Positions 12,085 to 63,402 of a stretch of DNA of 64,000 nucleotides are shown here, in pieces; the first letter of the stretch is position 1; the number at the start of each line of letters is the position of its first letter. The notes beneath the pieces were generated by a model. That model made no database searches, was not told where the DNA came from, and saw only the letters and a list, made by a program, of their open reading frames with translations. This DNA comes from Anaerolineales bacterium (GTDB lineage Bacteria > Chloroflexota > Anaerolineae > Anaerolineales > Villigracilaceae), in contig JBEKCT010000002.1 of NCBI GenBank assembly GCA_050014715.1, positions 1,331 through 65,330 of the forward strand, read 5' to 3'. A program made the position numbers and the translations under genes.

Positions 12085-12161
12085 CGTAAGTTCGCAATTC
12101 TAAACAGAACGGGGTTAGCCACAGCCCTCCTAGCTAACCCTGGCCACATCTACTTGCAGGT

Positions 12162-13148
12162 TCAGGCGGGAACACGCTTCAACACACGGTTCACTGCGGC
12201 GACAATATCAGATTCTTTGGGCAACACGAACTCCTCGAGCACGGGGCTGAAAGGCACCGGGACGTCCTTGGCGGTTACGCGCACGATTGGCCCATCCAGG
12301 TAATCCATTGCCTCTTCGGCCACCAGGGCAGATACTTCACTGGAGATAGAGCAGTCGCGCCAGGTCTCCTGCACTACCACCAGGTGTCCGGTTTTCTTAA
12401 CCGATTCGAGCACCATTTCGCGGTCCAGTGGATCGACGGTGCGCAGGTCGACTACTTCACAGTCGATACCCTGCTTGGCCAGCTGCTCGGCGGCTGCCAG
12501 GCTCTTGTGGACCATTAAGGAATAGGTGACGATAGTTACATCCGAACCTTTACGCTTGATATCAGCTTTCCCGATCGGAATGGTATAGTCTTCTTCGGGA
12601 ACGTCACCTTTCATGGCATACAGTTTTTTGTGTTCGAAGAATAGCACAGTGTTGTTATCCCGGATTGCACTCTTTAACAGGCCCTTGGCATCGTATGGAG
12701 TGGCGGGCATGATCACTTTGATTCCGGGGACGAAGGAGAATATTGATTCAAAACTATTGGAGTGCTGTGCTCCGGCACTCAGATATCCGCCGACCGGGGC
12801 GCGTATCACCAACGGCATCTCGAGCACGCCACCGAACATATAGCGCATTTTTGCAGCCTGGTTGATGATCATTTCGCTCGCCAGTGTAATCCAATCTGAA
12901 AACTGCAGTTCGATTACCGGGCGGATGCCGGTTGCCGCTGCGCCGACGCCCATCCCAACGTAGCCAAGTTCGGAAACGGGCATATCGATCACCCGCTCAC
13001 GACCAAACTGCTCATACAGACCTTTCGTGCAGGCATTGGCCCCCCCATATGGGCCGATATCAATCCCCCATAGGATGACGTTTGCATCCCGACGCATTTC
13101 TTCGGCTAAGGCTTCGGCTATGGCCTGGTTGTAGAATAGCTGTCTCAT
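12162..13148 (-). CDS. acoB: E1 beta subunit, acetoin/2-oxoacid dehydrogenase type
   Basis: 328 aa. It has the pyrimidine-binding plus transketolase-C fold pattern (DTPISE-like PVSELG, HSNSFE, FFEHKKLY). It lies directly downstream of E1alpha. Confidence 0.9.
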   Translation of the reverse strand: MRQLFYNQAIAEALAEEMRRDANVILWGIDIGPYGGANACTKGLYEQFGRERVIDMPVSELGYVGMGVGAAATGIRPVIELQFSDWITLASEMIINQAAKMRYMFGGVLEMPLVIRAPVGGYLSAGAQHSNSFESIFSFVPGIKVIMPATPYDAKGLLKSAIRDNNTVLFFEHKKLYAMKGDVPEEDYTIPIGKADIKRKGSDVTIVTYSLMVHKSLAAAEQLAKQGIDCEVVDLRTVDPLDREMVLESVKKTGHLVVVQETWRDCSISSEVSALVAEEAMDYLDGPIVRVTAKDVPVPFSPVLEEFVLPKESDIVAAVNRVLKRVPA

Positions 13149-35278: not shown

Positions 35279-36625
35279 ATGATTGGATTAAACCAGGAAC
35301 TAGAAGAGCGAGAAGCTTCTGGAAAGCCCGTGCGGATTGGGCTGATAGGGGCCGGGCAAATGGGCACCGATGTGGTGGCCGAAACCAGGATGATGAAGGG
35401 CATCCAGGTTATTGCTGCCGCGGATATAGATATCGAACGAGCGCGCGAGTCCTATGAGATTGCCGATATTAATGCAGAAGTGGTCGTTGCCTGTACTCCT
35501 GAAGAAGCAGATGCCGCGGTTGCTTCAGGGAAACGGGTGGCCACTCAGGATTACCGCGTGATCACGGATATGAAAAACATCGATGTCATGCTGGAGGCAA
35601 CCGGTGTGCCGGAGATCGGGACACGCGCAGCCTTGCGAGCGGCTCGCCACGGACATGACCTTTCCATGATGAACGTTGAAACCGACATAACCGTTGGCCC
35701 ACTTTTAAATTGGTATGCCAGGCAAAAAGGCGTTTTATATGCTCTGGCAGCCGGTGATGAGCCAGCCGCCTGTAAAGAACTGTACGATTTCGCTGATTCA
35801 CTTGGTTTCACGATCGTGGCGATTGGCAAAGGGAAAAACAATCCACTCGATCGGCACGGAACCCCGGCTGATCCGGTTGTAATGAAGGAAGCTGCCCGGC
35901 GCGGGCTGAGCCCGAATATGCTGATCGAGTTTGTTGATGGCAGCAAGACAATGGTTGAGATGGCTGCTGTCTCCAACGCCACCGGGCTGGTTCCGGATGT
36001 GCGCGGCATGCATGGCCCGGAAACCAACCGGGATATCCTCAACCAGACCTTCGCTCTCAAAGAGGACGGCGGCATTTTGAACAAAATGGGAGTGGTTGAT
36101 TTTGGGATCGGACATGTTGCCCCGGGAGTTTTTGCCATTGTCCGCACCGACCACCCCCGTCTGCGCCAGGCGATGATCTTGCGCGATATGGGCAATGGTC
36201 CATACTACACTCTTTTCCGCCCCTTCCATCTGTGCAGCATCGAGGTTCCCCTGACCTGCGCCATGCTGACCATCCGCAAGAAACCCAACATGGTCCCGCT
36301 GAACCGGCTGGTTTCCGAGGTATTTGCAGTGGCCAAGCACGACTTGATGTCCGGCGATGTGCTGGACGGGATTGGCGGGACAGCCTACTACGGCCTAATC
36401 GATACTTTCGAGAACGCCAAGGCTGAAAACCTGCTGCCAATCGGTCTGGCCAAGGGCGCTAAAGTACTCCATCCACTTAAGATCGACCGCCCCATTTCGT
36501 GGAGTGACGTGGAAATTAATCCCTCGACTGTGCTGGACCTGCGCCGGTTGCAGGATGCCTGGTTTGAAGGAAAGATCGGCGATCCAGAACTGTTGGCGGC
36601 CATCGATGCCCTGGCGAATGACTGA
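35279..36625 (+). CDS. NAD(P)-binding oxidoreductase with C-terminal SAF domain (COG4091-type, 'predicted homoserine dehydrogenase' family)
   Basis: 448 aa. Motifs seen are [53 protein letters not shown], and a C-terminal [21 protein letters not shown]-like segment. Architecture was recognised by eye. Confidence 0.7.
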
Positions 36626-36669
36626 GAAGTCTGATCGATTCTGTTAACCTAATGAGAGGAGCGCAAACC

Positions 36670-38079
36670 ATGTCACGAGCTACCCTGGGAGTGATTGTTG
36701 GAAACCGAGATTTCTTCCCTGACCGATTGGTCACCGAAAGCCGTAAAGATATCCTGACTCTGTTCAAGGAGCTGGATATAAAGCCGGTGATTTTGAAAGA
36801 AACCGATACCAAGTTGGGTTCCGTTGAAACCTACAGCCATGCGAAAGCCTGCGCCGAGCTCTTCCGCCAAAACCGGGACCGTATCGACGGCATCCTGGTT
36901 ACCCTGCCAAACTTTGGCGATGAAGGCGGTGTTGCGGAAACGATCAAGTTGTCCGGGCTGAATGTACCTATCCTGGTACAGGCTTATCCGGATGATTTAA
37001 ACCAGCTCAACGTGGAGCGCCGCCGGGATGCATACTGCGGCAAGATCTCCGTTTGTAACAACCTGCGGCAATATGGTTATGCCTACACCTTGACCGAGCT
37101 GCACACCGTTCACCCACTCAGCCCGAGTTTTCGCAAGGACCTAGAAAAGTTTGTGGGCATTTGCAGCGTGGTCAAGGGCATGCGCTCTGTGCGCCTGGGC
37201 CTGGTGGGCGCTCGGCCGAACAATTTTAAGACCGTCCGCTTTAGCGAGAAACTCCTGCAGTCCTACGGCATTACGGTCTGCACGATCGATCTCTCCGAAA
37301 TCTTCGGGGAAGCCAAACGGATCGCGGACGATGATGCAAGGGTCAAGACCAAGCTGGGCGAAATAACCAGTTATATCAAGACAACCGGCGTGCCGTCTGA
37401 ATCGCTGGTGCGCATGGCCAAATTTGGGATTGTCCTGTCAGATTGGATGAGCTCCAATGACCTGCAGGCCAGCGCTTTACAATGCTGGGACTCGATCCAG
37501 AAAAACTATGGTGTCAATGCCTGCACCTTGATGAGCATGATGAGCGACCAGCTGATGCCCAGCGCCTGCGAAACAGATATCACCGGTGTGGCATCGATGT
37601 ATGCCCTGCAGCTGGCATCGAAAAAACCAAGCGCACTGGTTGATTGGAATAACAATTACGGCGATGATCCGGACAAGGTAGTGTTCTTCCACTGTGGCAA
37701 TTGGGCAAAAAGCTTCCTGCCCGGGTTTGAAATGAAGACCGCTGAGATCCTGGCGACCACCCTAGGCGAGCGCAATACATACGGCGCAGTCGCCGGGCGA
37801 GTCCCACCAGGACCGGTCACTTTTGCCCGCATCACCACCGACGATGTGGTTGGCATGATCCGGACCTATGTTGGCGAAGGCCGCTTTACCGACGACCCGC
37901 TGGATACTTTCGGCAGCCGGGCGGTGGTCGCCATCCCCGGTCTACAAAAGATGATGCATTATATTTGCAAGAACGGCTTCGAGCATCATGCTGCCATGAA
38001 CGGCTCATTGACGGCAGATATTCTAGCGGAAGCCTTCGAGAACTATTTCGGTTGGGAAGTTTATCAACATCATGGGTAA
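36670..38079 (+). CDS. L-fucose/L-arabinose isomerase-family protein
   Basis: 469 aa from ATG 36670, which has GAGGAG 8 nt upstream; the ORF-track start at 36652 lacks an SD. Motifs seen are [19 protein letters not shown] and FHCGN, with the domain length of the FucI-like family. Confidence 0.75.
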
Positions 38080-40172: not shown

Positions 40173-41309
40173 ATGAAAACCCGAATATTGCTTGTATCTT
40201 TAATCGTGGCGGCGTCCATGATCCTGAGTGCCTGCGGATCAACCCCCACGGCTGCGCCTGCTACGGTTGCGCCTGCTGGTCCAACCGCTACGCCGCAGAT
40301 TATCATCCAGACCCAGGTGGTCATGGAGACCGCTGTTCCATCGAAGAAAAGTGTGGTCATCGGTTATGCCGCCCCAGGCCTGGTCGGTGGGCAAATTAAC
40401 ATCCAGGAGACCCTGCTCCGCTACGCTCAGAATAAGGGCTGGCAGGTGTCCGTTACCAACTCGAATGGCGATGCCCAGAAGCAAAATGATGATATTGACT
40501 ATTTGATCTCCCAGGGCGTCAGTGCGATCGTGGCCGTCCCTCAGGACAGCGCCGCGATTTGCGCCGGTGCTGCCAAGGCTAAGGCGGCCAATATCCCCTT
40601 CTATACCATTGACCGCGCTCCGTCTGGCTGCGCCATCAATATGACTATCGAATCCGATAACACCCTCGCCGGGAAGCAGGCTGGGCAGGCAATGGTTGAC
40701 GCCCTCAAGGTGAAAAACGGCTCCGAAAAGGGTATTGTGCTGGAGATCACCGGCGATCTGGGCCAAGATGTGGGCCAGAAACGCCGCGATGGCTTCCACA
40801 GTGTCGTGGATACGTTCCCGAACATCAAAGTCATCCAGAAGGTCGGTAACTGGGATGCCGCGACAGGCGCCACGGCCGTTCGCGACGTTTTGACCGCGAA
40901 CCCCACCCTGGACGGCATCTACATGGCCTCCGACGCCGTGTATATCTCCGGCACCATGGCTGAACTCAAGGCGGCCAATAAGCTCTTCAAGGTCGGCCAA
41001 CCGGGCCATGTCATCCTGACTTCCGTCGACGGCTCTCCGGCTGGTGTCCAGGCCATCAAGGATGGCTGGGGGGACGAATCCTCCAACCAACCCATCCCGG
41101 ATTTCGGGCTGATCGTGAACTTCATCGATCAGGAATTGGGTGGTAAGCCGGTCCAGGAAGGCGCATTCACCCAGGCTGGCGCCCTCTGGTCACCTGCCCA
41201 GATCGTAAAAAACTCTGACGGCACCCCTACCTGCCTGTTAGCCACTACCGCTGTCACAGCCGCCAATGACACCGATCCCGGTCTGTGGGCGAACTACGTA
41301 GTGAAATAA
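40173..41309 (+). CDS. sugar ABC transporter substrate-binding lipoprotein (CUT2/RbsB-like, PBP type I)
   Basis: 378 aa, with AAGGAG SD. It has a signal peptide with the lipobox ILSAC|G, a Thr/Pro/Ala linker, and then a periplasmic-binding-protein fold. Confidence 0.88.
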   Translation: MKTRILLVSLIVAASMILSACGSTPTAAPATVAPAGPTATPQIIIQTQVVMETAVPSKKSVVIGYAAPGLVGGQINIQETLLRYAQNKGWQVSVTNSNGDAQKQNDDIDYLISQGVSAIVAVPQDSAAICAGAAKAKAANIPFYTIDRAPSGCAINMTIESDNTLAGKQAGQAMVDALKVKNGSEKGIVLEITGDLGQDVGQKRRDGFHSVVDTFPNIKVIQKVGNWDAATGATAVRDVLTANPTLDGIYMASDAVYISGTMAELKAANKLFKVGQPGHVILTSVDGSPAGVQAIKDGWGDESSNQPIPDFGLIVNFIDQELGGKPVQEGAFTQAGALWSPAQIVKNSDGTPTCLLATTAVTAANDTDPGLWANYVVK

Positions 41310-45284: not shown

Positions 45285-46256
45285 ATGAACGCTTCTCCAT
45301 CCACAATTCAAGAACAGCGGGTGGCCTTGGGAGATGCCCTTGTTCACCTGGGAGGAGAATTCTCCAACCTGGTGGTGCTCTCCCCGGATGTATCCATATC
45401 TACCCGGGCTATCAAGTTTAAAGCTGCTTTCCCTGATCGATTCATTTGCACCGGCATCTCGGAGCAGAACACAATTGGAATGGCAGCGGGTCTCTCGACC
45501 ATGGGCTGGGTACCGGTCGTCGTCGGATACGCGATGTTCGTAGGCGGGAAAGCCTGGGAACCCACGCGCAACTCGATCGCCTACCCTCACTTGAATGTAA
45601 AGATCGTTGCGACGCATGGAGGAATCGGGGTGGGCCCGGATGGTGTGACGCACCAGGCGATCGAAGACTTGGCATTGATGCGATCGATCCCTGGAATGAT
45701 CGTCCTGACACCGATGGACGCCAACCAGGTAGAACCGGCGCTGAGAGCAGCCCTGACGACCCAAGGGCCGGTTTATATCCGGCTGGAACGGGCAGCGATG
45801 CCGATTCTTTCCGAAACGGGGGCACCCTATCTGATCGGTGGATCCATCCGGCTGCGCGAAGGCCGGGATGCCACGGTCCTGGCCATTGGTGGGATGTCTG
45901 CTGCGGCGGTTGAGGCGGCGGATGCACTTGTACAGGAGGGTATCCACATCCGCGTGGTGAGTATGCTTTCGGTCAAACCACTCGATGAAGCGGCAATCGT
46001 CGCCGCTGCACACGATACAGGCGCTATCGTCACCGCTGAAGACCATAATCGCCTTGGCGGGCTGGGCGGAGCTGTAGCCGAGACGCTGGCCCGCTTGGCC
46101 CCCGCACCCATGGAGCAGATTGCCGTAGAAGATACCTTCGCTGAAAGCGGTTCCGTCAAAGCGCTTTACACGAAATACCACCTGACCTCCAGTGATATCG
46201 CCAGTGCAGTGAAAAAAGCGATCTCCAGAAGCCAGGCGACCACCAAGGGTCTTTAA
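45285..46256 (+). CDS. transketolase, C-terminal (pyrimidine-binding) subunit
   Basis: 323 aa. Motifs seen are FICTGISEQNTIGMAAGL, HGGIGVGPDGVTHQAIEDLALMRSIP, and a C-terminal regulatory-like domain. Confidence 0.9.
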   Translation: MNASPSTIQEQRVALGDALVHLGGEFSNLVVLSPDVSISTRAIKFKAAFPDRFICTGISEQNTIGMAAGLSTMGWVPVVVGYAMFVGGKAWEPTRNSIAYPHLNVKIVATHGGIGVGPDGVTHQAIEDLALMRSIPGMIVLTPMDANQVEPALRAALTTQGPVYIRLERAAMPILSETGAPYLIGGSIRLREGRDATVLAIGGMSAAAVEAADALVQEGIHIRVVSMLSVKPLDEAAIVAAAHDTGAIVTAEDHNRLGGLGGAVAETLARLAPAPMEQIAVEDTFAESGSVKALYTKYHLTSSDIASAVKKAISRSQATTKGL

Positions 46257-47096
46257 ATGGTAAACGCCGCATCACAAATTGACCTTCCCAAGATTGTGCT
46301 GCTGACCGAACGGGCGCGCTGTATGCGCTGCGACATCATCCGCATGACTAGCGCCGCCGGCAGCGGCCACCCGGGACCATCCTTCTCGCCGGTGGAGTTC
46401 CTCTCGGCCCTCTATTTTTCGGAAATGCGCATCGACCCTGTCAATCCGAGCTGGCCTGAACGGGACCGGTTTGTGTTGTCCAAAGGGCATGCCGCACCGG
46501 TTCTGTACGCTGCGCTACACGAGGCAGGTTATTTCTCCGACGAAGTGATGCTCTCCCTGCGCCAGGTAGGCAGCCTGCTGCAAGGCCATCCGACCGTGAA
46601 GACCCCTGGCGTGGATGCGACAACGGGCTCGCTGGGGCTCGGTCTTTCCCAAGTGGTCGGTATGGCGCTGGGCGCCCGCATGCGCGGGGCCAACAGCCGG
46701 GTCTATGCCGTCATCGGAGATGGTGAATGTGATGAGGGCCAGATCTGGGAGGCCGCCCTGGCAGCGGCCCATTTCCACCTGGGCAACCTGGCCGTATTCC
46801 TCGACCATAACGGCTACCAGTTCGACGGGCCGGTAAGCCAGGTAATGGGCCTCGAACCCCTGGCCGATAAATGGCGCGCATTTGGTTGGCGGGTTGAAGA
46901 GATCAATGGCCATTCGTTCGAGGACATCCTCGGCTTTCTCGAGCGTTCGCGCGCCTTCCCGGACCAGCCCTCGATGGCGGTCGCCCGTACGATAAAAGGG
47001 TACGGGGTGTCTTTTATGGCTGGAAGCCAGGAATACCATGCCCGATCGCTGACCCCCGAAGAGACGCAGCGGGCACTCGCCGAATTGGAGTGCTAA
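46257..47096 (+). CDS. transketolase, N-terminal (TPP-binding) subunit
   Basis: 279 aa. Motifs seen are SGHPGPSFS, LSKGHAAPVLYA, GSLGLGLS and GDGECDEGQIWEA. Its ATG immediately follows the TAA of the previous gene. Confidence 0.9.
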   Translation: MVNAASQIDLPKIVLLTERARCMRCDIIRMTSAAGSGHPGPSFSPVEFLSALYFSEMRIDPVNPSWPERDRFVLSKGHAAPVLYAALHEAGYFSDEVMLSLRQVGSLLQGHPTVKTPGVDATTGSLGLGLSQVVGMALGARMRGANSRVYAVIGDGECDEGQIWEAALAAAHFHLGNLAVFLDHNGYQFDGPVSQVMGLEPLADKWRAFGWRVEEINGHSFEDILGFLERSRAFPDQPSMAVARTIKGYGVSFMAGSQEYHARSLTPEETQRALAELEC

Positions 47097-47099
47097 ACG

Positions 47100-48047
47100 A
47101 TGCCCACACCCAAGATTGCAGTAGTCGGCAGTTGCAATATGGATATTTATTCGTGGACCGATCACCTGCCGGAGCCCGGCGAGACGGTGATCGGCGACCG
47201 GTACCTGATGGTCATGGGTGGCAAAGGCGCCAACCAGGCAGTGGCTGCCTGCCGCCAGGGCGCCCAGGTGAGCATGATTGGCCGGGTTGGGGATGACCTG
47301 TTCGGTCAGCGCATGCTGGATACCCTGGTCAGCTACGAGGTAGACACATCCTTTGTCCAGGTGGATCACCAGACCGGGTCAGGAGTGGCACTGGTGATCG
47401 TGGACAAAAAGCCGGAGAACATTATCCTGGTGGTGCCGGGGACCAATATGCGCATTGAGCCAACCGATATTGACCCCGCGGCCGAGAGACTCCATGAGGC
47501 GGATGTATTGCTGCTTCAGATGGAGATCCCGCTCCCGACCATCGAGCATGCCCTCGACATCTCACGGCAGGGAAAGACGTTCTGCATCCTCAACCCTGCG
47601 CCGGCCCGGCCTCTCCCGGATCAGATTTTCCGGAAGATCGACTTAATCACCCCCAACCAGAACGAAGCTAAAGTCCTGACCGGCATCCCGGCGGATACGG
47701 TCAAAGGTGCGGAAGCAGCCGGAAAGGCGCTGATCGAGCGTGGGGTTCCGGCGGTAATCATCACGCTGGGAGCGCAGGGTGCGCTGCTTGTGCTTCCCAA
47801 CGAGACACACCACGTGGAAGGATTGCGCATCGAGGATGCGCTGGACACCACCGGCGCCGGGGATGCCTTCATGGGCGGGCTCTCGGTCGCCCTCGCCAAA
47901 GGAAAATCCTTGCAGCCGGCTGTCCGGTTTGCCAACGTCGTCGCGGCGCTCTCAACCCGGCGGCGAGGGGCAATGCCCTCCATGCCCAGCCGGGAGGAGG
48001 TGGAAGTGTTCATTCGGGATCATAATCTTGAATCCCTGGTCGCCTAA
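47100..48047 (+). CDS. rbsK: ribokinase (PfkB family)
   Basis: 315 aa, collinear with RbsK. Motifs seen are VVGSCNMD, PGETV.G, GGKGANQAVA, LNPAPA, TPNQNEA and DTTGAGDAF. Confidence 0.88.
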   Translation: MPTPKIAVVGSCNMDIYSWTDHLPEPGETVIGDRYLMVMGGKGANQAVAACRQGAQVSMIGRVGDDLFGQRMLDTLVSYEVDTSFVQVDHQTGSGVALVIVDKKPENIILVVPGTNMRIEPTDIDPAAERLHEADVLLLQMEIPLPTIEHALDISRQGKTFCILNPAPARPLPDQIFRKIDLITPNQNEAKVLTGIPADTVKGAEAAGKALIERGVPAVIITLGAQGALLVLPNETHHVEGLRIEDALDTTGAGDAFMGGLSVALAKGKSLQPAVRFANVVAALSTRRRGAMPSMPSREEVEVFIRDHNLESLVA

Positions 48048-48060: not shown

Positions 48061-49158
48061 ATGGGCATTTCGAATGAGGCAAAGGTAAAAGAAGAACGGA
48101 TCCATCACCTGCTGGGTCAGCGTGGGTATGATTCGTTGCTGGTTGTGCGCCGGGAGAACTTTGCCTGGCTCAGCTGCGGTGGGCGGGCAGTCACTTCGTA
48201 TGTGGTGGAGAATGCGCCGGTGTATCTGCTGGTGACCCCCACCCGCAAGTATGCCATCGGATACTGCATGGACGTGCCGCGCACCTTTGACGAGGAACTG
48301 GCCGGCCAGGGGTATGAACCAGTGGCGCTGCCCACTTTTGGGAAGACCCCCGACCAGGCTGCCTTGGAGCTTGCCACGGGCCGCCTGGCAGCAGATTGCG
48401 CCATCGCCGGGCTGGATAACCTGGGGCCGGCGGTGACCGCACTCCACGAGCCGCTTTTGTCCGAGGAGATGGAGCGCTACCGTGCAGCCGGAAAAGAGGC
48501 CGGCGAGTTAATTCACGATCTGGCCAGCTGGGTCAGGCCCGGGATGTCCGAGCGCCAGGTCCTCGGCCACATGTGGGGGTTGTACGCCGAACACAATTTT
48601 GATGGGGACTGCATGTTCGTCGTTTCGGACGAGCGGATCCGCCGCTACCGGCACGCGGTGCCCTCCAATAAGGTCATCGAGCGGGTGGTGATCCTGGCTC
48701 CGGCAACCTATAAGTACGGCCTGCATTTTCCGGTCAGCCGGGTTGTTTATTTTGGCCAGCCCACGAAAGATGAACGCCGGCGTCATCTGGCGGCCTCCTC
48801 TATCCAGGCGGCGATGGTCGCCAGCGCAAAACCGGGCATGCACCTTACGACCATGCGTCAGACTTGCCTGGACCTCTTTGACCAGCTCGGCTTCCCAGAA
48901 GAGAAAACCAACCACATGCACGGTGGGCCGACTGGCTACCGAGTCAGCTATCCAGAACGCTGCCAGGATCCGAACGAAATGGTCAAGCCCGGTATGGCTC
49001 TTGGCTGGTATATCACCCTCGCAGGGGCAAAGAGCGAGGAGGTTACCCTGGTAGATGAGCAGGGTGGCCAGCTCATCACTGTAGATCCGACCTGGCCGAT
49101 GCTCGAGATCGAGTATCAGGGACAAAAAGTGGTTGTTCCGGATGTCCTGCTGCAATAG
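48061..49158 (+). CDS. M24-fold (creatinase/prolidase-like) protein, probably non-peptidase
   Basis: 365 aa from ATG 48061 (GAGAGGAAAAA upstream). The ORF-track start at 47779 overlaps rbsK and is rejected. It has the pita-bread-fold pattern HMHGGPTGY and KSEEVTLV. The usual Asp-Asp metal pair is not evident. Confidence 0.65.
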   Translation: MGISNEAKVKEERIHHLLGQRGYDSLLVVRRENFAWLSCGGRAVTSYVVENAPVYLLVTPTRKYAIGYCMDVPRTFDEELAGQGYEPVALPTFGKTPDQAALELATGRLAADCAIAGLDNLGPAVTALHEPLLSEEMERYRAAGKEAGELIHDLASWVRPGMSERQVLGHMWGLYAEHNFDGDCMFVVSDERIRRYRHAVPSNKVIERVVILAPATYKYGLHFPVSRVVYFGQPTKDERRRHLAASSIQAAMVASAKPGMHLTTMRQTCLDLFDQLGFPEEKTNHMHGGPTGYRVSYPERCQDPNEMVKPGMALGWYITLAGAKSEEVTLVDEQGGQLITVDPTWPMLEIEYQGQKVVVPDVLLQ

Positions 49159-49476
49159 GAGATTGAGACGTCAACTACCACCCGCTAATGGCTTATATCT
49201 GGAGTAATAGAGTGCCCTACTTTCAAAGCTGCTTACCTTTTCCGATACATTCGTCAGTAATCAGGGTTATGCGCTGGTGTACCCTGTGGCATTTCGATTG
49301 GATGACTTCTCTTACGACAGAGAGTGGGGCCTCCGGTCCCACAACAGCCCAGTTGGCAAGAATTTCTCGTACTTCCTGCAAACACCAGTGCCGTTTAATT
49401 AGAACAATCGTACCGCAAGAAAGGAGAGGCGGCTTTCTCCCGTGTTGAAACGGGTGGTTTCCACCGCCAAGAAACT

Positions 49477-50640
49477 ATGAAAATTGCGATTGGCAGCGAC
49501 CACGCAGGTTTTCCCTTGAAACAGACCGTTATGGCAGAGCTGCAGGAACTGGGTCATGAGGTGACCGACCTGGGCGCTTTTACCGATGCACACGCGGCTG
49601 ACGATTACCATTTCACCGGAGTGCGCGTGGCGGAGACGGTGGTCAGCGGACAGGCAGACCGGGGGATTGTCATCTGCGGGACGGGGATCGGCATCAGCAT
49701 CGCCGCCAACAAGATCCCCGGGGCAGACGTCGCCCTATGCAACGATCTCTATACAGCGCAGAAATCGCGCGAGCACAACAACGCCAATGTCCTGGCGATG
49801 GGGTCACGGGTCGTCGGCGAAGGTCTGGCGAAGGAGATCGTGCGTGTCTGGCTGGCGACCCCCTATGCAGGCGGCCGTCACGAGGCCCGCAATCTTAATC
49901 TGCGCAAAATAGAAGCCAGGTATTCCCGCACACCGCAGACCGGATCACGCCGCGCCAGCCGAGGGAAACCCGCACCTCTCCGCGGGCGTCTGGTCGATCT
50001 CTCTCAATTGATATATCCCTCCCAAGAGGAGTACCGCTTCGACGCGCAGGTTTACCCGGTTAGCGAACTGCTCCCCCAATACCACACCCCGGTGGGGCAG
50101 TGGTATGTCATGACCGAGGTGACCTTGTGGAGCCACGTAGGTACGCATATCGAGTCGCCGCTTCACTACATAAAGGATGGACCAGATGTGGCTGACCTGC
50201 CGCTCGAGCAGTTGATCGGCCCGGCGGTGGTCCTCGATTTCAGCCACAAGCAGACCAACGAACCCATCCAGCTGGAAGAACTGCGCGAAGCAGGGGACGT
50301 GCAGGTCGGGGATATCGTCATCCTCAAAACTGGGCGCGACCGGCTGTATCGGACGCCGCAGGCGCATGACCGTCCTTACCTCGCTGTGGAAGCCACCCAT
50401 TGGCTGGCGGAAGACCGCCGGATCGCCCTACTGGGTACAGATGCCTCGGGTTTTGAGGTGCGCGGGATCGATACTCAGCCGAACCACCAGATCCTGTTCG
50501 AGCGTGGCATCCCGGTGATCGAACACCTGACCAACCTGTCATCCCTCACCCGGAGCCGGGTTACACTAATCGTCCTGCCCTGGAAGGCCCGCGGCTTGGA
50601 TAGCTGCCCGGTGCGGGTGGTAGCCTTCGAAGAAGAATAA
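49477..50640 (+). CDS. fusion protein: RpiB/LacAB sugar-phosphate isomerase (N) + putative cyclase/formamidase-family domain (C)
   Basis: 387 aa. Residues 1-~148 read MKIAIGSDHAGFPLK...VICGTGIGISIAANK...GGRHEARNLNLRKIE (RpiB). An Arg/Ser/Pro linker follows. Residues ~170-387 carry the motif SHVGTHIESPLH (HxGTHxExPxH, 50134-50166), typical of the cyclase family. Confidence 0.8.
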   Translation: MKIAIGSDHAGFPLKQTVMAELQELGHEVTDLGAFTDAHAADDYHFTGVRVAETVVSGQADRGIVICGTGIGISIAANKIPGADVALCNDLYTAQKSREHNNANVLAMGSRVVGEGLAKEIVRVWLATPYAGGRHEARNLNLRKIEARYSRTPQTGSRRASRGKPAPLRGRLVDLSQLIYPSQEEYRFDAQVYPVSELLPQYHTPVGQWYVMTEVTLWSHVGTHIESPLHYIKDGPDVADLPLEQLIGPAVVLDFSHKQTNEPIQLEELREAGDVQVGDIVILKTGRDRLYRTPQAHDRPYLAVEATHWLAEDRRIALLGTDASGFEVRGIDTQPNHQILFERGIPVIEHLTNLSSLTRSRVTLIVLPWKARGLDSCPVRVVAFEEE

Positions 50641-50652: not shown

Positions 50653-51105
50653 ATGAAAATCATTATTGGCAGTGATCACGTTGGCTTCCCACTGAAGGAA
50701 ACGATTGTGCAGCATCTCAAGGACCGCGGATATGAGCCGGTAGATTTGGGCGTGCGGGACGAGACGCCGGTCGATTATCCGGATATCGGTCAGAAGCTGG
50801 CGGAGTGCGTTGCCCGAGGGGAGTACGAACGGGGGATCCTGGTGTGCGGTACGGGGATCGGCATGGCAATTGTGGCTAACAAAATCCCGGGTGTGCGAGC
50901 AGCAGTATGCCATGATCCCTATTCGGCTGACCGTGCGCGTAAAAGCAACAATGCTCAGATAATGACTCTGGGCTCCCTGGTGGTCGGCGCGGAGCTGGCC
51001 AAAATACTGGTTGATATCTGGCTGGCATCTGAATTTTCCGGTGGGCGATCAGCACCCAAGGTGGAAAAGATCAATGCCTTGGACGCTTATTACCGGAAAC
51101 GCTAA
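50653..51105 (+). CDS. rpiB: ribose-5-phosphate isomerase B / LacAB-family sugar-phosphate isomerase
   Basis: 150 aa. Motifs seen are MKIIIGSDHVGFPLK, ILVCGTGIGMAIVANK and GGRSAPKVEKI. Confidence 0.9.
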   Translation: MKIIIGSDHVGFPLKETIVQHLKDRGYEPVDLGVRDETPVDYPDIGQKLAECVARGEYERGILVCGTGIGMAIVANKIPGVRAAVCHDPYSADRARKSNNAQIMTLGSLVVGAELAKILVDIWLASEFSGGRSAPKVEKINALDAYYRKR

Positions 51106-51120: not shown

Positions 51121-52113
51121 TTGAATACTGACCCATTGGCAGTAGATAAATCGACATTACAGCATCTTCTGTATCAAATGCTTGTCATCCGGCGCTTTGA
51201 GGAAGCACTTTATCGGGCTTTTCAAACTGAGAAAATGCCCGGCACCATGCACCAAACGACCGGCCAGGAGGCGATTGCGGCGGGGGTTGGAGAGGCGCTC
51301 CAGCCCGGGGATGTGATGACTTCTACCCATCGCGGCCATGGGCATGCGATTGCCAAGGGGCTAAGCATTCGGAAACTGATGGCGGAGATGTACGCTCGCC
51401 AGACGGGAACGAGCCGGGGGATAGGCGGTTCGATGCACCTCTTCGACCTTGCCAACGGGTTTTTGGGCACGACAGGCGTGGTGGGGGCCGGGGTGCCGAT
51501 CGCGGCCGGTGCCGCGCTGGCCCTGCATCTGGAAGGCAATCACAGGGTGGCGATCGCATTCATGGGAGATGGAGCCATGAACCAGGGTGCCGTCCACGAG
51601 GCGATCAACCTGGCGGCGGTTTGGAAGCTGCCGGTGGTCTTTGTATGCGAGAACAACGGTTATGCCGTTTCACTGCCCATGCAGAAGGCTTTTGCAATCA
51701 GCGCCATCGCCGAACGGGCGGCAGGGTACGGTATTCCTGGGATGACGCTGGATGGCAACGATGTGTTGGCGATCTATGAAGCGGCCTGTGCCGCAGTTGC
51801 CCGGGCGCGGGCAGGTGATGGCCCCTCTTTCCTGGAGTGTCTGACTTACCGCCATAAAGGCCATTCACGCTTTGAGCCGGCCAGCTACAGACCAGCCGGG
51901 GAGCTGGATGCATGGCTAGAAAAAGACCCAATCAAAGGATTCTGTCAGCGGCTCATCAGCTCGGGTATTTTCAAAAATAGCGAGATCGATGCCGTGCAGG
52001 CTGAGGCTCAGGTGGCAGTGGACGATGCAATCGCCTTTGCCCACTCCAGCCCACCCGCATCGTTGGAGGAAGCGCTGCACTTGACCTTTGCTGACGGCGA
52101 AGAGAGCAGGTAG
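51121..52113 (+). CDS. E1 alpha subunit (TPP-dependent), paralogue 4
   Basis: 330 aa, TTG start 15 nt after the rpiB stop. It has STHRGHGH and GDGAMNQG...CENN (GDG-x26-NN). Confidence 0.9.
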   Translation: MNTDPLAVDKSTLQHLLYQMLVIRRFEEALYRAFQTEKMPGTMHQTTGQEAIAAGVGEALQPGDVMTSTHRGHGHAIAKGLSIRKLMAEMYARQTGTSRGIGGSMHLFDLANGFLGTTGVVGAGVPIAAGAALALHLEGNHRVAIAFMGDGAMNQGAVHEAINLAAVWKLPVVFVCENNGYAVSLPMQKAFAISAIAERAAGYGIPGMTLDGNDVLAIYEAACAAVARARAGDGPSFLECLTYRHKGHSRFEPASYRPAGELDAWLEKDPIKGFCQRLISSGIFKNSEIDAVQAEAQVAVDDAIAFAHSSPPASLEEALHLTFADGEESR

Positions 52114-52115: not shown

Positions 52116-53156
52116 ATGCTAACCATGAATATGTCACAAGCGATCAACCTGGCCCTGCGCGAGGAGATGCGCCGGAACGCTAAAGTAGTTCTATTGGGCG
52201 AGGATATCGGCCGCTTCGGCGGGGCTTTCCAAGTAACCAAAGGGCTGCTGGAGGAATTTGGAGAGGACCGCGTTCGGGACACCCCCCTGTCTGAGGCGGC
52301 GATCATCGGCTGTGCGGTCGGGATGGCCCTGATGGGCTGGCATCCGGTAGCCGAGATGCAGTATTCCGATTTCGTCACCTGCGGGTTTGACCAGCTGGTC
52401 AACCAGGCGGCAAAAATTCACCTGATGTCCGGAGGAGGGGCGTGCGTCCCGATGGTGTTGCGCTTGCCGATCGGGGCCAAAGAGCACGGTGCGCAGCACG
52501 ACCAGAGCCCGGAAGCCTGGTTCATGCACACCCCCGGTCTGAAAGTTGTCATCCCTTCTACCCCCTACGATGCCAAAGGCCTGCTGAAGAGCGCCATCCG
52601 CGACCCCAATCCGGTGGTCTTCTGCGAACACAAAGTCCTGTATGGTACCCAATCGGTGGGCGGCCGCGGGCTGCCGGATCCGAAAAACGGAGAGACCGGG
52701 AGCGGCCTGGGGGCACAGGTCCCTGAGGAAGAATATACGATTCCTTTGGGAGTAGCGGATTTAAAGCGGCCCGGCCGGGACGTGACGATCATTGCCACGG
52801 CACTCATGGTCCACCGGTCAGTTGAGGCCGCCCTCCAACTTGCACAGGAGGGGATCGAGGCGGAGGTTGTCGATCCACGCACGCTCGTCCCGCTCGACCG
52901 AGAGACCATCCTAGGGTCGGTTGCCCGCACTCACCGGGTGATGGTGGTGACCGAGGAAGCCCGAACAGGGTCAGCGGGAGCGGAGATCGCCGCGCTGATC
53001 GCCGAAGAGGGCTTTGACGAGCTGGATGCTCCGGTGGTGAGGCTGGGCGCACCGGATGTTCCCCTCCCCTTCGCGCCTCACTTGCAGGCGAAATTTATCC
53101 CAAGCGCTGCGGAGATCGCGCGGGTGGCCCGTAGGCTCGTCCAGAAACAGATTTAG
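52116..53156 (+). CDS. E1 beta subunit, paralogue 4 (with ~20-aa insertion)
   Basis: 346 aa. Motifs seen are RDTPLSE, QHDQSPE and FCEHKVLY. The extra segment SVGGRGLPDPKNGETGSGLGA is absent from the other three betas. Confidence 0.9.
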   Translation: MLTMNMSQAINLALREEMRRNAKVVLLGEDIGRFGGAFQVTKGLLEEFGEDRVRDTPLSEAAIIGCAVGMALMGWHPVAEMQYSDFVTCGFDQLVNQAAKIHLMSGGGACVPMVLRLPIGAKEHGAQHDQSPEAWFMHTPGLKVVIPSTPYDAKGLLKSAIRDPNPVVFCEHKVLYGTQSVGGRGLPDPKNGETGSGLGAQVPEEEYTIPLGVADLKRPGRDVTIIATALMVHRSVEAALQLAQEGIEAEVVDPRTLVPLDRETILGSVARTHRVMVVTEEARTGSAGAEIAALIAEEGFDELDAPVVRLGAPDVPLPFAPHLQAKFIPSAAEIARVARRLVQKQI

Positions 53157-53170: not shown

Positions 53171-54415
53171 ATGTCGTTTGAAGTGATCATGCCCAACCTG
53201 GGAGTAGTAAGCGAAACCTCAACCTTACTGCGCTGGCTTGTCCAGCCGGGTGATGAAGTGCGGAGAGGGCAGCCCTTTTTTGAAGCTGAATCCGATAAAG
53301 CGACCGTAGAGATCGAAGCCGGGGAGTCGGGGCGGTTTATCCCTCTTGCAAGTGCAGGGGACTTGATTGAGGCTGGTAAGGTGATCGGGATGCTGTTGAG
53401 TCCAGGGGAAGAATATCCGCAGGAAGAAGACCTCCCAAACAAGACCTCCTCCGCATCCGTTGCCAGTCCCCTCAGGCCAGTCGCGTTGCCGATGAACAAC
53501 CCGGAGCCACCCACCACGGCTCGTTCGGGCCGGGTGATGGTCACCCCACTTGCCAGGCGTCTGGCTGCCCGGCAGGGTGTGGATATCACCAAAATTAGTG
53601 GGTCAGGACCGCGCGGAAGGATTGTGGAATCGGACGTGCGGCAGGTCATGGAGCAACAAGCCGGGAGGGGATTCTCGCTCGAGGAAAAATCCCCGTTGTC
53701 GACTTTGCGCGGTGTAATTGCCCGCCGGATGGAAGAGTCAGCGCATACCACCGCACCGGTCACCCTGGTCACCGAGGGGAATGCTGAAAGGCTGGTTTCC
53801 CTCCGCGAAAACCTGCAGCATCACCCGGGCATGACAGGGGAATGGGTTACCTATAACCTGCTCCTGGCCCGGATAACCGGGCAGGCTTTGCTTGACTTTC
53901 CCCTTTTGAATGCCTCGTTGAGCGCTGGCGAGATTACCTTCCATGATATGGTCAACATTGGTGTGGCAGTGGATACCGAGAGAGGTCTGATCGTGCCGGT
54001 CTTGAAAGATGTCACCCACCGCCCGCTCCTTGAGCTGGGGAAGGAATTGGCTGACCTGATCGGGCGGGCCCGCGCGGGCCGCTCTTTCCCAGAAGACTTA
54101 CAAGCCGGGACATTTACAATTACCAACTTAGGCCAATATGGGATCGATGCGTTCACCCCGGTGATTAATTTACCCGAATGCGCAATCTTAGGTATTGGTC
54201 GGATCCGCCGATCGCCGGTCGAACGGGATGGAGGGCTGATACTGGGACAGATGATTACCCTTTCGTTAACCTTTGATCATCGCCTGGTGGACGGCGCCCC
54301 CGCCGCCCGCTTCTTGCAACGCTTGATTCAGATCGTAGAGGCACCGGATCAGATTGGGATTTTACATTCAGGAGGGCTTGGTGAGCAGGAGGAAGGCTTA
54401 TCAACTGCGGCGTAA
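53171..54415 (+). CDS. dihydrolipoamide acyltransferase (E2), paralogue 3
   Basis: 414 aa, with TGGAGAA SD. It has a lipoyl domain (EAESDKAT), a binding domain (VTPLARRLAARQGVDI), and the catalytic DHRLVDGA. Confidence 0.9.
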   Translation: MSFEVIMPNLGVVSETSTLLRWLVQPGDEVRRGQPFFEAESDKATVEIEAGESGRFIPLASAGDLIEAGKVIGMLLSPGEEYPQEEDLPNKTSSASVASPLRPVALPMNNPEPPTTARSGRVMVTPLARRLAARQGVDITKISGSGPRGRIVESDVRQVMEQQAGRGFSLEEKSPLSTLRGVIARRMEESAHTTAPVTLVTEGNAERLVSLRENLQHHPGMTGEWVTYNLLLARITGQALLDFPLLNASLSAGEITFHDMVNIGVAVDTERGLIVPVLKDVTHRPLLELGKELADLIGRARAGRSFPEDLQAGTFTITNLGQYGIDAFTPVINLPECAILGIGRIRRSPVERDGGLILGQMITLSLTFDHRLVDGAPAARFLQRLIQIVEAPDQIGILHSGGLGEQEEGLSTAA

Positions 54416-59094: not shown

Positions 59095-60447
59095 TTATGT
59101 CAGGCATTTTTCATACCCATCTTGATATGGGTATTTTGCCGGGAGCTTCATGACAATATATCTTACCGATCTGATAATTATCCCGGCAAGAGAAACATAT
59201 TTCAAACAGAATGTCTTGATTTGCTTCCTGAATTCTGAAATGCCCATAAGATCGAATTTGAACAGCAAAAACAGATTGAATGAAAGCATCATCATTTGAA
59301 ACACAGCCTCATTGGCCCAAAACGATTTCAATAATAGATGCCCTACTGCCATATCATACTTGGCTTCTTAGATGTAATTCTCAGCATTGTCACGCTTTTC
59401 GTAAGAAATAACCACTTTTTCTGAAGGGAGTTCAGTATTGGTTACAAAGAAAAAGTAATCGTATTCGTCGCCGTCTATGAGAGATAATTGCACCCTTTCT
59501 TTTTCTGGTTTCCCTGGCCTAGTCTGCCAGGACAGCCAATACCCGAGAGACTACAAATCTTCTGTCTTTGTCCCATGTGTTTTGTTTCGTAAAAAGTTCA
59601 GCCGTTTCCCTGCCCTCTTCACCTGTCACGAATAAAACCGATGAATCCATTACTTGAGATATAAGGGTTGGATATTCTTTGGCCTTGATCAATTACTTGC
59701 AACCCAGAGATTCGATCGTTTCAATAATTTCTTTATCAAAATAGCCGCTGTCCATTCGGAACATGATTTCCAACTCATCGGTTTTGATATTGGCAACGAT
59801 CTCTTTGATCATTTCAGCTGCGCCATTGGCCGTATAGGTGTTGCCGCTTCTCACAAAGCCAGTGATGTATGCCTTTAGTTCTTCACAGAAGGCAAACTGG
59901 ATGTTGTAACAAAGATTGCCAAGCTTTTTGGGATTATATCCCCTGGCAGTTCCTTCCTGATGACCTTCCACGTTGACTACACTGCTGTCAATGTCGATAG
60001 TGAAAGTACCACGAAGTGGCATGGATCTTAGTTTGCTTCGATCAAGCAGCTTTTTAAAGACTTTGAAAATAATATCTCTGAGCATTTGAGTTGTTTTATA
60101 GCTGAAGTTTCCCAAAAATCTGGATACCGTTTCTGGTTCTTTCACCGAAATACCAAACTCGTTGACCAGTGCATCCTCTTGCAGCAGTTTGAGCCGTTCC
60201 AGTTTATCAATTCCAATAAAGTGGCCGCAGAGCAGCGTTTTGACATGGTTCATCTTGATCGTGTTTGTTGATTCATTATCAAACACAAGGTCTTTGTCAA
60301 TGAGTTCAAAGATACGATTGCCTTTGCATTTTCAAACAATAGAAATAAATCTGCTTTGGACGTCAGATTCCTGGCTGTAAAATCAATATTATTGATCACA
60401 ATTCGTACTTCTTCGTGCTTGTTTTTTTCTCCTTCAAATTTTAACAT
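59095..60447 (-). mobile_element. IS1380-family transposase pseudogene (multiple lesions)
   Basis: The fragments are collinear: MLKFEGE..DFTARNLTSKADLFLL, then ..IDIDSSVVNVEGHQEGTARGYNPKKLGNLCYNIQFAF..RSGNTYTANGA, and ..FFFVTNTELP..YEKRDNAENYI*EAKYD... In-frame stops lie at 59690-59692 and 59368-59370. Frameshifts lie near 60270 and 59520. The segment is strongly AT-rich. Confidence 0.75.
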
Positions 60448-62562: not shown

Positions 62563-63402
62563 ATGAGTAATAATATCCAATTCCCCCATAAATCACCTTT
62601 CGAGGAAATCAAGCGCACCGACCCAGATACCGGGGGCGAGTTCTGGTCGTCCCGCGACTTTTACAAGGTGCTGGGATATACAAGTTATAAATACTTCGAA
62701 CCGGTCATCAAGAAAGCCAAGCTGGCCTACCTGAACAGTGGACATAAAATCGAAGATCATTTCATGGAGTTGCATGATATGATCAAAATCGGCAAAGGCG
62801 GACAGCGACAAGTTGAGACCGTTCTCATGTCGCGGTACGCCTGTTATCTGGCCATACAAAACGCCGACCCAAAAAAAGAAATCGTAGCCCAGGGGCAAAC
62901 CTACTTCGCGGTGCAGACCCGGATACAAGAAATCCAGGAAGCGGAACTTGAGGACGATCGGCGGTTTCATTTGCGGGACGAGATCCGCCACCATAACACC
63001 CAGCTGGCCGGTGCCGCCAGGAACGCCGGCGTGGTCGAACCGGTAGACTACGCAATATTCAAAAACCACGGCTATATGGGATTGTACTACGGCTTGAAAA
63101 CGGCCGACATCCACAAGCACAAAGGTCTCAAACCGAGCCAGAAGATCCTGGATCATATGGGCAGCGCTGAACTGGCCGTAAATTATTTTCGCGCAACCAA
63201 GGCAGAGGAGAAGCTCCGGCACGATGGTGTAAAGGGGAAAGCAGCCGCGAATGCCACCCATTTCACTGTGGGTCGGGAGGTACGAGAGACCATCAAAAAG
63301 CTCGGCGGTACGATGCCGGAGGATCTGCCGATTGCCGACAGTATCGAGAAGATTGATGCCAAACGCAAGAAACGGCTCTCTGGAGAAGAACATATTAGAT
63401 GA
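62563..63402 (+). CDS. dinD: DNA-damage-inducible protein D
   Basis: 279 aa, with AAGGAG SD. It is collinear with E. coli DinD. Motifs seen are PFEEIK, HFMELHDMIKIG, LSRYACYLAIQNADP, QTYFAVQTR, FKNHGYMGLY, ILDHMGSAELAVNYFRAT and GGTMPEDLP. Confidence 0.9.
   Translation: MSNNIQFPHKSPFEEIKRTDPDTGGEFWSSRDFYKVLGYTSYKYFEPVIKKAKLAYLNSGHKIEDHFMELHDMIKIGKGGQRQVETVLMSRYACYLAIQNADPKKEIVAQGQTYFAVQTRIQEIQEAELEDDRRFHLRDEIRHHNTQLAGAARNAGVVEPVDYAIFKNHGYMGLYYGLKTADIHKHKGLKPSQKILDHMGSAELAVNYFRATKAEEKLRHDGVKGKAAANATHFTVGREVRETIKKLGGTMPEDLPIADSIEKIDAKRKKRLSGEEHIR

Follow-up and report, generated by a model that had tools for sequence, protein, structure and literature searches.

The stretch analysed here, termed the window, comprises 64,000 nucleotides of contig JBEKCT010000002.1 from an Anaerolineales bacterium (assembly GCA_050014715.1, positions 1,331 to 65,330 of the forward strand, renumbered from 1). 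Its forward strand carries at 49477..50640 an uninterrupted open reading frame (ORF) of 387 codons, with an ATG start and a TAA stop, which joins an RpiB-type sugar-phosphate isomerase to a cyclase-fold domain of family PF04199. A preliminary description of the window had divided this ORF into three parts, and the ORF coordinates, the Pfam domains and the positions of the motifs bear out that division. The parts are an RpiB domain (residues 1–150; 49477..49926), which represents one of two RpiB paralogues and is designated RpiB_A, the inter-domain linker RTPQTGSRRASRGKPAPLRG (residues 151–170; 49927..49986), and the cyclase-fold domain (residues 171–387; 49987..50640, including the stop codon), which has a metal-dependent hydrolase fold and belongs to a subfamily designated Glu-type after a residue of its metal site. 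Beyond RpiB and Cyclase, Pfam gives merely one 13-bit chance match in the fusion protein.

The LacAB_rpiB family of Pfam matches residues 3–138 (E value 1.5e-51; 174.5 bits against a cut-off of 24.7) over model positions 1–134 of 138. The fusion also scores above the cut-offs of the NCBIfam rpiB equivalog TIGR01120 (157.2; cut-off 138.65) and of NF004051 (178.1; cut-off 135). Alignment with the 148-residue RpiB of C. thermocellum (PDB: 3he8) runs end to end, with the C-termini ...IEKKYS and ...IEARYS (residue 150). The RpiB domain is therefore complete, as had been proposed, and the remainder of the protein is extra. The active-site motifs VICGTGIG (residues 65–72) and GGRHEARNL (residues 132–140) are present, as are the catalytic and phosphate-binding residues D8, H9, C67, T69, H100, N101, R134, and R138, all of which are conserved in every fusion. 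We take these, in numbering and in role, to be the counterparts of Asp9, His10, Cys66, Thr68, His99, Asn100, Arg133, and Arg137 of E. coli RpiB. The domain shares approximately 50% identity with the RpiB/AlsB proteins of E. coli (PDB: 1nn4 and 2vvr) and C. thermocellum (3he8), together with a Cys-type catalytic base, the phosphate-binding arginines and a root-mean-square deviation (rmsd) of 0.8–0.9 Å. Unlike these proteins, the window protein has a 237-residue C-terminal extension, and the label "RpiB" hides half of it.

The basic Ser/Arg/Pro linker noted earlier corresponds to SRTPQTGSRRASRGKPAPLRG (residues 150–170; 49924–49986). The 22-residue stretch YSRTPQTGSRRASRGKPAPLRG (residues 149–170) contains 5 Arg, 1 Lys, 3 Ser, and 3 Pro. 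Behind it, the Cyclase family PF04199 matches residues 173–327 (E value 5.6e-29; 101.6 bits against a cut-off of 23.1) over model positions 1–141 of 142. Stand-alone orthologues of this half are 220–232 amino acids long and up to 85% identical to it, and sequence matches in the PDB include 1r61/3krv, 8hmo, KynB, isatin hydrolase, and C-PTE. In an AlphaFold2 model of the fusion, built on an alignment of 84 sequences, the mean predicted local distance difference test score (pLDDT) is 93.5 and both domains are confident. The pLDDT exceeds 95 across most of residues 1–150 and falls below 50 for residues 152–165. With a predicted template modelling score (pTM) of 0.62, the model indicates that the linker is probably disordered and that the orientation of the domains is not fixed. 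In Foldseek comparisons the modelled RpiB domain superposes on 3he8 with a TM score of 0.97 and an rmsd of 0.8 Å, while the modelled cyclase domain finds fold matches at TMt 0.7–0.87, those to 3krv, 8hmo, 8f9x, and 4cob lying at 0.78–0.87. The family assignment of the C-terminal domain is upheld by both the Pfam score and these fold matches. No PDB entry found by the fold search spans both halves of the fusion.

The metal-binding motif SHVGTHIESPLH occupies 50131..50166 (residues 219–230). The position given for it in the preliminary description, 50134, is that of its first His, a trivial offset. Compared with the family hallmark HxGTHxDxPxH, the three His are present as H220, H224, and H230, whereas the Asp is replaced by Glu226. 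This replacement, which had also been noticed, is a fixed signature of an entire subfamily: at position 226, at least 90% of 39 Glu-type members have Glu and at least 90% of the 44 Asp-type RpiB-cyclase fusions described below have Asp. It is a conservative carboxylate swap. The distal ligands, located by alignment to the distal His and Glu of 1r61, 8hmo, and KynB, are H337 (50485–50487) and E349 (50521–50523). The full ligand set H220, H224, E/D226, H230, H337, and E349, plus D322, is common to Glu-type and Asp-type enzymes. The signature of the Glu-type subfamily comprises WSHVGTH[IL]E[AS]PxH, YRTPxAHDRPY, TDASGFE, QPNH, and PVIEH. Lys258 and His297 are conserved specifically in this subfamily, and its HDRPY motif is likewise conserved. 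In the crystal structure of the PF04199 phosphotriesterase C-PTE, the Asp equivalent to position 226 bridges two Zn ions (PMC12135135), so that the Glu swap reaches the core of the metal site. RpiB structures and cyclase-fold proteins are oligomeric, C-PTE having been solved as a domain-swapped dimer.

The characterised hydrolases of PF04199, i.e., KynB (PDB: 4co9 and 4cob), isatin hydrolase (4m8d and 5nna), the esterase MGS0169, trans-dienelactone hydrolase, and C-PTE (8f9x), have in common with the window domain the fold, the His/His/acid/His plus His plus Glu site and the expected mechanism, in which metal-activated water attacks a carbonyl or phosphoryl centre. They differ from it in sharing only 19–27% identity, in lacking WSHVGTH[IL]E, YRTPxAHDRPY, and TDASGFE, in carrying Asp where the window protein has Glu, and in their aromatic or xenobiotic context, as opposed to the sugar-catabolic one found here. 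The family also includes a Mn-stimulated carboxylesterase besides trans-dienelactone hydrolase, and the example of MGS0169 indicates that variants of the motif can remain active (PMC5341072).

A lost stop codon or an assembly error at the junction had been named as the first thing to exclude. The fusion could in that case stem from an error of assembly or sequencing, or from two genes having been joined very recently by an inactivating read-through, and be biologically meaningless. Consistent with such an artefact, the window derives from a metagenome-assembled genome (MAG), the nearest stand-alone relatives (loci L002 and L007) possess two genes, and the net length of the junction differs from that of L007 by only 2 nt. 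The exact fusion protein is, however, recorded from an Anaerolineales MAG, and contigs from two different Joint Genome Institute (JGI) samples (3300037993 and 3300038418) match the surrounding DNA over 7164 and 5165 nt with 0 mismatches, the junction being identical in the two separate assemblies. Moreover, a separate GTDB species representative, Anaerolineaceae SMAG_U9539 (locus L013), also encodes a 387-codon fusion at approximately 77% nucleotide identity, with the frame intact across some 23% divergence. Between the two, synonymous codon differences outnumber non-synonymous ones by 64 to 23 in the RpiB part and by 86 to 29 in the cyclase part. The linker is only 55% identical, compared with 85–87% in the domains, but is of equal length and in frame. 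A diverged, in-frame linker between domains that change mostly at synonymous positions is the pattern expected where purifying selection acts on a functional protein whose two domains are joined by a freely evolving tether. Both start codons of the former cyclase gene have been replaced as well, which is beyond the reach of one single error, and the catalytic residues are all kept in both domains. An artefact or pseudogene was therefore rejected as highly improbable, and we consider the fusion almost certainly real and functional. Comparison of these sequences shows a genuine, selectively maintained union, by way of a flexible linker of some 20 residues, of an intact RpiB-type isomerase with a complete cyclase-fold domain carrying the full set of metal ligands.

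The cyclase half is most closely related to stand-alone proteins of approximately 222 amino acids, with which it shares 79–85% amino acid identity. In L002/L003 (Chloroflexi MAG DBS2-1.bin152) and in L007, separate rpiB and cyclase genes occur in the same synteny as in the window. The operon order in these loci is TK-C, TK-N (the two halves of a split transketolase), PfkB, M24, rpiB_A, cyclase, rpiB_B, E1a, E1b, and E2. These pairs match the window fusion in their orthologous genes and operon order and differ in being two overlapping genes rather than one frame. The stop codon of rpiB overlaps the ATG-ATG start of the cyclase gene by 4 or 26 nt in the L002 and L007 pairs, and the unfused cyclase genes have a GGAG-type ribosome-binding site before this start. 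At the window junction the frames are merged, with a net gain of 13 nt over L002 and of 2 nt over L007; the rpiB stop no longer exists, and each of the two ATGs has been substituted. The linker appears to derive from the former 3' end of rpiB, the intergenic overlap and the start region of the cyclase gene. No in-frame ATG or GTG occurs between residues 140 and 182 of the fusion, where only CTG172 and TTG178 are found. An internal start yielding a separate cyclase was rejected, since ATG and GTG are lacking and TTG178 falls within the conserved N-terminal RLVDLS segment. With the rpiB stop and the cyclase start codons lost and no in-frame ATG or GTG left, the hydrolase domain can now be produced solely within the fusion. 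In a neighbor-joining tree of the cyclase domains, the fused proteins of the window and L013 are sisters, nested among the unfused L002, L007, and L014, and this placement suggests a single fusion event in their common ancestor. The junctions and the tree together argue that the fusion arose recently, in an Anaerolineales lineage, by merger of the neighbouring overlapping genes rpiB_A and cyclase. The comparison of window and L013 with L002 and L007 offers a clean, datable case of a fusion formed from an overlapping gene pair.

The preliminary description stated that no characterised RpiB-cyclase fusion was known. Our literature search likewise found none characterised; it turned up no paper on such a fusion and none that links PF04199 to sugar metabolism. 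The rarity that the statement implied does not hold for sequence databases. The fusions L001/P0002 and P0003, 56% identical to the window protein, belong to a second Glu-type clade, which also includes unfused Aerophobetes members that have rpiB directly upstream (L015 and L017) or lack it at that position (L016 and L018). Unlike the window fusion, those of L001 and P0003 retain an internal Met behind a GGAG-like sequence. An exhaustive HMMER search of 1.84 billion representatives yielded two further full-length fusions, P0140 and P0151, with approximately 35% identity, both Pfam-confirmed and with the canonical Asp. When P0140 then served as the query, such Asp-type fusions, 342–372 amino acids in length, came up in no fewer than 85 clusters at 90% identity; their organisms, where named, are Chloroflexota/Dehalococcoidia. 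Several of them are entered at NCBI as "ribose 5-phosphate isomerase B". The architecture of RpiB plus cyclase is thus already catalogued and common in Chloroflexota, although uncharacterised, and the Glu-type fusion of the window is a new form of it.

The Asp-type fusions (e.g., P0140, P0273, and P0350) resemble the window protein in having PF02502 followed by PF04199, in the catalytic residues of RpiB, in the positions of the metal ligands and in phylum. They differ in sharing only 33–37% identity, in having Asp in place of Glu, in a tight 14-residue junction as opposed to the disordered one of 27 residues here, and in a housekeeping-like context (RPE, transketolase, 6PGD, and PGI) as opposed to a catabolic operon. 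The 14-residue junction is invariant in 44 of 44 aligned Asp-type fusions, whereas that of Glu-type fusions ranges from 25 to 29 residues, a pattern that fits one old fusion and several young ones. The cyclase tree places the Asp-type fusions outside the Glu-type subfamily, and the nearest Glu-type members are unfused. The window fusion is therefore independent of them; identity, junction and tree give common descent no support, and the shared architecture is convergent. In a neighbor-joining tree of RpiB, a single paralogue clade, RpiB_A, holds the fused domains from the two Glu-type clades as well as unfused neighbours, and the stand-alone RpiB_B downstream forms a distinct clade. On the evidence of these trees and junctions, the RpiB and cyclase families appear to have been fused independently at least three times. 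Such repeated fusion constitutes "Rosetta-stone" evidence that the two families cooperate.

The Asp-type fusions examined in context, P0151 among them, lie in pentose-phosphate-pathway neighbourhoods. On four independent contigs RPE comes after the Asp-type fusion, a full-length transketolase lies on the opposite strand, and genes for HcyBio, a ferredoxin and an AbpE-family protein precede it. This block, HcyBio (homocysteine biosynthesis, sulfur incorporation), NIL/4Fe-4S ferredoxin, AbpE-family gene, fusion, and RPE, is strictly conserved in L094, L096, L097, and L098/L099, all from Dehalococcoidia-like genomes, and sulfur-amino-acid genes here adjoin those of the pentose phosphate pathway. 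The labels AbpE_bact and, below, Apionate_lact come solely from precomputed annotations. The P0151 locus reads PGI (3' end), 6PGD, fusion, and acetyltransferase, the 6PGD scoring 405 bits against an equivalog cut-off of 297, and is the sole locus with both PGI and 6PGD beside the fusion. As a separate observation, RpiB was also found fused to other partners in proteins P0128, P0165, P0189, P0225, P0238, and P0247, which include an RpiB-RpiB tandem and fusions with UPRTase, DUF436, class II aldolase, and RPE.

In the window the fusion sits in a long sugar catabolic operon. Of its surroundings the part from 33.6 to 63.4 kb was annotated, and all statements below on genes not found in the window refer to that part. 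The forward-strand cluster consists of genes for a SIS-domain protein, a zinc-dependent alcohol dehydrogenase, a DRL-type oxidoreductase, a fucose-isomerase-like protein, an FGGY kinase, a CUT2 ABC transporter, a transketolase, PfkB, an M24-family protein, the fusion, RpiB_B, and E1 alpha, E1 beta, and E2. A solute-binding protein is encoded in the operon at 40173–41309. The transketolase is split (TK-C 45285–46256; TK-N 46257–47096; Pfam and NCBIfam) and is followed by a ribokinase-like PfkB protein (47100–48047; 341 bits against a ribokinase cut-off of 299.65) and by the M24-family protein (48061–49158; Pfam and NCBIfam). The order from TK-C to the M24 gene is the same in L002, L013, and L014. 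The canonical 150-residue RpiB reported to start 12 nt past the stop of the fusion was found there, at 50653..51105 (Pfam E value 2.7e-55; NCBIfam rpiB 164.6, cut-off 138.65). This RpiB_B scores 174.8 with the model for D-erythrulose-4-phosphate isomerase, below the cut-off of 240. The fused RpiB being one of two paralogues in the operon, its substrate may not be ribose-5-phosphate. Downstream, all on the forward strand, lie a pyruvate dehydrogenase (PDH)-like E1 alpha (51121–52113), E1 beta (52116–53156), and an E2 acyltransferase (53171–54415), identified by Pfam and NCBIfam.

Between the M24 gene and the fusion lies a non-coding spacer of 318 nt (49159..49476), compared with 11–24 nt in the relatives L013 and L002. 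It holds a AAAGGAGAGG stretch and, directly before the ATG of the fusion, a small hairpin (CCCGTGTTGAAACGGG). A riboswitch or other RNA element was considered for this spacer and rejected, as neither an Rfam match at an E value of 1 or below nor a sigma-70-like promoter was found in 49159–49476. The spacer could be an insertion that created a new internal promoter or regulatory site. Further upstream in the cluster, the protein encoded at 36652–38079 has a fucose-isomerase C-domain and a sole, weak NCBIfam match, sulfoquinovose isomerase SftI (100 bits against a cut-off of 700). The DRL-type oxidoreductase (35279–36625) carries a SAF domain and received no NCBIfam name.

A split transketolase is also a feature of the D-apiose transketolase pathway, whose cluster comprises AplK, AptA, and AptB (Carter et al., 2018, as cited in PMC13001218). 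The TK-N and TK-C of the window share 40% and 36% identity with AptA and AptB of E. coli SE15, respectively, while the FGGY kinase is just 24% identical to AplK. Apiosidase and apionate-lactonase-family genes accompany the second type of locus described next (type A), not the window.

For a wider view of gene context, GTDB species representatives were scanned with the subfamily alignment, which gave 80 loci, nearly all from MAGs (Chloroflexota, Spirochaetota, Aerophobetes, Actinomycetota, and others). Neighbourhoods were counted over 86 non-redundant loci, 45 of them type B, 35 type A, and 6 other (short or unclassifiable). Type B loci have the order cyclase, E1a, E1b, and often E2, frequently with PfkB, RpiB, or SDR. 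E1a is present in 45 of the 86 loci, and an SDR gene lies directly upstream of the cyclase in 14. The one such SDR scanned, that of L001, scores above the cut-off of the broad 'glucose 1-dehydrogenase' subfamily model of NCBIfam. Type A loci have the order GHMP kinase, cyclase, RPE-like gene, in some cases a KpsF/GutQ-like SIS gene, PGDH-like 2-hydroxyacid dehydrogenase, and SDR, frequently with a GFO/IDH/MocA oxidoreductase and a GntR (GntR/FCD) regulator and also with a CUT2 ABC transporter. Their GHMP kinase is mevalonate-kinase-like (192.6 bits against a cut-off of 163) and was for that reason read as a hydroxy-acid kinase. An apiosidase-like hydrolase (GH, PF13204) occurs in six type A loci, and apionate-lactonase-family genes are annotated in L008 and L009. 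A partner of approximately 640 amino acids recurs in 12 type A loci, its apionate-lactonase-family identity not being confirmed by Pfam. This conserved and apparently undescribed type A module (L008, L009, L019–L046, and others) is a candidate for a further route for D-apiose, D-apionate, or a related branched sugar acid.

Of the 45 type B loci, 21 contain RpiB, whereas all 35 of type A lack it; RpiB is fused to or adjacent upstream of the cyclase in only 8 loci. The steadiest partners of the cyclase are the PDH-like E1 alpha and beta in type B, or the GHMP kinase and the RPE-like gene in type A. Viewed over both types, the cyclase is constantly accompanied by a kinase for sugars or hydroxy acids and by enzymes of 2-hydroxy or 2-oxo acids, with RpiB frequent but not obligatory. 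E1a lies directly downstream of the cyclase in 34 of the 86 loci, in many phyla and often without E2, so that the cyclase might instead serve the thiamine pyrophosphate (TPP)-dependent E1 alpha/beta, e.g., by hydrolysing an acyl-thioester, an acyl-phosphate, or a reactive product of E1 or E1/E2, the RpiB fusion then being a by-product of gene order that became fixed because fusion is tolerated between partners of an operon. The esterase MGS0169 was crystallised with an acetyl-phosphate-like ligand (PMC5341072), which would suit such a role, as would the small number of loci in which RpiB adjoins or is joined to the cyclase. The same cyclase subfamily is, however, carried by the 35 type A loci, which have no E1; the RpiB-cyclase fusion recurs in Asp-type enzymes at loci without E1; and the fused RpiB of the Glu-type clades comes from one conserved partner paralogue, RpiB_A. 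We regard this explanation as unlikely.

The family membership of kynurenine formamidase, correctly pointed out in the preliminary description, raises a further alternative, namely that the cyclase domain is a formamidase or deacylase whose substrate is a ribosylamine derivative or an amino-sugar phosphate with an N-formyl or N-acyl group, with RpiB isomerising the product. The best-characterised PF04199 enzymes indeed act on formylkynurenine and isatin, the automatic annotation of JGI names relatives 'arylformamidase', the family of the M24 neighbour (PF00557) is named 'Metallopeptidase family M24', and a Glucosamine_iso-family gene lies nearby in L001. Against the arylformamidase KynB equivalog TIGR03035 of NCBIfam, however, the window protein scores only 69.1 bits, far below the cut-off of 223.05. 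Among the annotated ORFs of the window no genes of the tryptophan or kynurenine pathway or of amino-sugar metabolism were found, and the 86 related loci show genes for sugar transport and catabolism instead. The M24 gene is confined to the clade of the window itself, and the partners that are conserved comprise kinases of sugars or hydroxy acids, epimerases, and 2-oxoacid or 2-hydroxyacid dehydrogenases. An amidase is accordingly improbable in our judgement, and the label "arylformamidase" is probably wrong. The suggestion that the fusion couples hydrolysis to isomerisation on a sugar derivative thus keeps its plausibility from the recurrent fusions and their contexts, while its N-formyl or formamidase side is weak.

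The independent fusions, the ester, lactone, and phosphotriester hydrolases known in PF04199 and the pentose-phosphate contexts make a coupling of hydrolase and isomerase more plausible. Taking sequence and context together, we think it probable that both domains are active in one sugar-phosphate pathway, and a bifunctional hydrolase-isomerase fusion in a sugar-phosphate route, which we hold to be a little more likely than not, is the explanation that we prefer overall. In such a route the kinase of the operon would make a sugar phosphate, and the cyclase-fold domain would hydrolyse a carbonyl ester by means of metal-activated water, the most likely substrate being a phospho-sugar lactone, as for 6-phosphogluconolactonase (6PGL) in the oxidative pentose phosphate pathway. 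Interconversion of an aldose and a ketose phosphate of the same route would fall to the RpiB domain, and the products would pass on to the TPP-dependent enzymes that the operon encodes (transketolase; E1/E2). Joined in one chain, the two activities would be co-localised at a fixed 1:1 stoichiometry. Only tentatively do we suggest a lactone or ester, in preference to an amide or phosphoester, as the substrate of the hydrolase. The only hydrolysis of a carbonyl ester in the pentose phosphate pathway is the lactonase step ahead of 6PGD.

Alternatively, the domain might cleave a pentose phosphate ester or a cyclic phosphodiester by way of a binuclear centre. Lys258, His297, and the Arg of HDRPY could bind an anion, HAD-type phosphatase-like genes occur in 10 type B loci, and C-PTE shows that the cyclase fold can attack phosphorus centres, although its activity on industrial organophosphate plasticizers is low and its authors suggest a recent evolution from isatin hydrolases (PMC12135135). 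A physiological sugar-phosphate esterase would be without precedent in PF04199, however, and with a kinase alongside and an RpiB that requires the phosphate, dephosphorylation would serve no purpose. A phosphoesterase is for us distinctly improbable.

Several points weigh against a hydrolase-isomerase fusion working in one sugar-phosphate route. The aldonate formed by hydrolysis of a lactone is not a substrate of RpiB, so that the two domains need not act consecutively. RpiB is missing from all 35 type A and from 24 of the 45 type B loci, and the cyclase therefore does not strictly need it. No gene for an aldose-phosphate 1-dehydrogenase or G6PD was identified near the fusion in the annotated part of the window. 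Glu at the metal-bridging position could mean a different metal content or chemistry. The literature search found no biochemistry for this cyclase subfamily or for any RpiB-cyclase fusion. Both the cyclase and the RpiB tree are neighbor-joining trees without support values, and the two JGI samples have near-adjacent sample and contig identifiers and may share one study and one population.

The comparison of the hydrolase-isomerase fusion with 6PGL is one of functional analogy only, in the proposed lactone chemistry and in the neighbourhood (6PGD, RpiB, RPE, and transketolase). The domain shows no homology in Pfam to a known 6PGL family, and G6PD is absent from the annotated part of the window. 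Known 6PGLs have unrelated folds, that of the Glucosamine_iso family (DevB/Pgl) and that of the beta-propeller family of YbhE. To our knowledge, no cyclase-fold protein has been shown to act on a phospho-sugar lactone. As a speculation to which we give rather little credence, the RpiB-linked PF04199 domains might be unrecognised metal-dependent phospho-sugar lactonases. The Asp-type fusions would then supply the 6PGL step in many Chloroflexota, and the Glu-type enzymes an equivalent step in an undescribed oxidative route for plant pentoses or branched sugars, ending at E1/E2 in type B or at the PGDH-like dehydrogenase and RPE in type A, where apiosidase and apionate-lactonase genes lie nearby.

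The Glu-type enzymes represent a large, uncharacterised branch of the cyclase fold that the repeated fusions tie to sugar-phosphate metabolism and whose members are almost confined to uncultured Chloroflexota, Spirochaetota, Aerophobetes, and Actinomycetota. If a phospho-sugar lactonase or esterase activity proved true, it would bring a new fold into that enzyme class, could fill a hole in the pentose-phosphate metabolism of Chloroflexota and would help to decode two widespread, unassigned sugar-catabolic gene clusters.

Some minor features of the loci may be added. In the window, a truncated DDE transposase ORF (59693–60286, reverse strand) and a gene for a Bro-N domain protein (62563–63402, forward strand) lie downstream of the sugar cluster and are signs of mobile-element activity near its boundary. 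Apparent fusions of an RPE-like protein with a 2-hydroxyacid dehydrogenase lie directly downstream of the cyclase in the three related loci L081 (6649–8301), L084 (6651–8339), and L086 (6522–8351), a further fusion event inside this module. An apparent GHMP-kinase-cyclase fusion in L034 (4819–6639) was rejected as a probable frameshift, since a second GHMP fragment lies in another frame and neighbouring genes in this MAG are split as well. In L010/L011 of Armatimonadota (1861–6974 and 11676–12827), and also in L039, L051, L052, and L077, several paralogues of the URO-D family (MtaA/CmuA-like methyltransferase fold) flank the module of cyclase, PfkB, RpiB, E1ab, and RpiB, a hint that the starting point of the pathway is in some of its versions a methylated (O-methyl) sugar or a similar compound.

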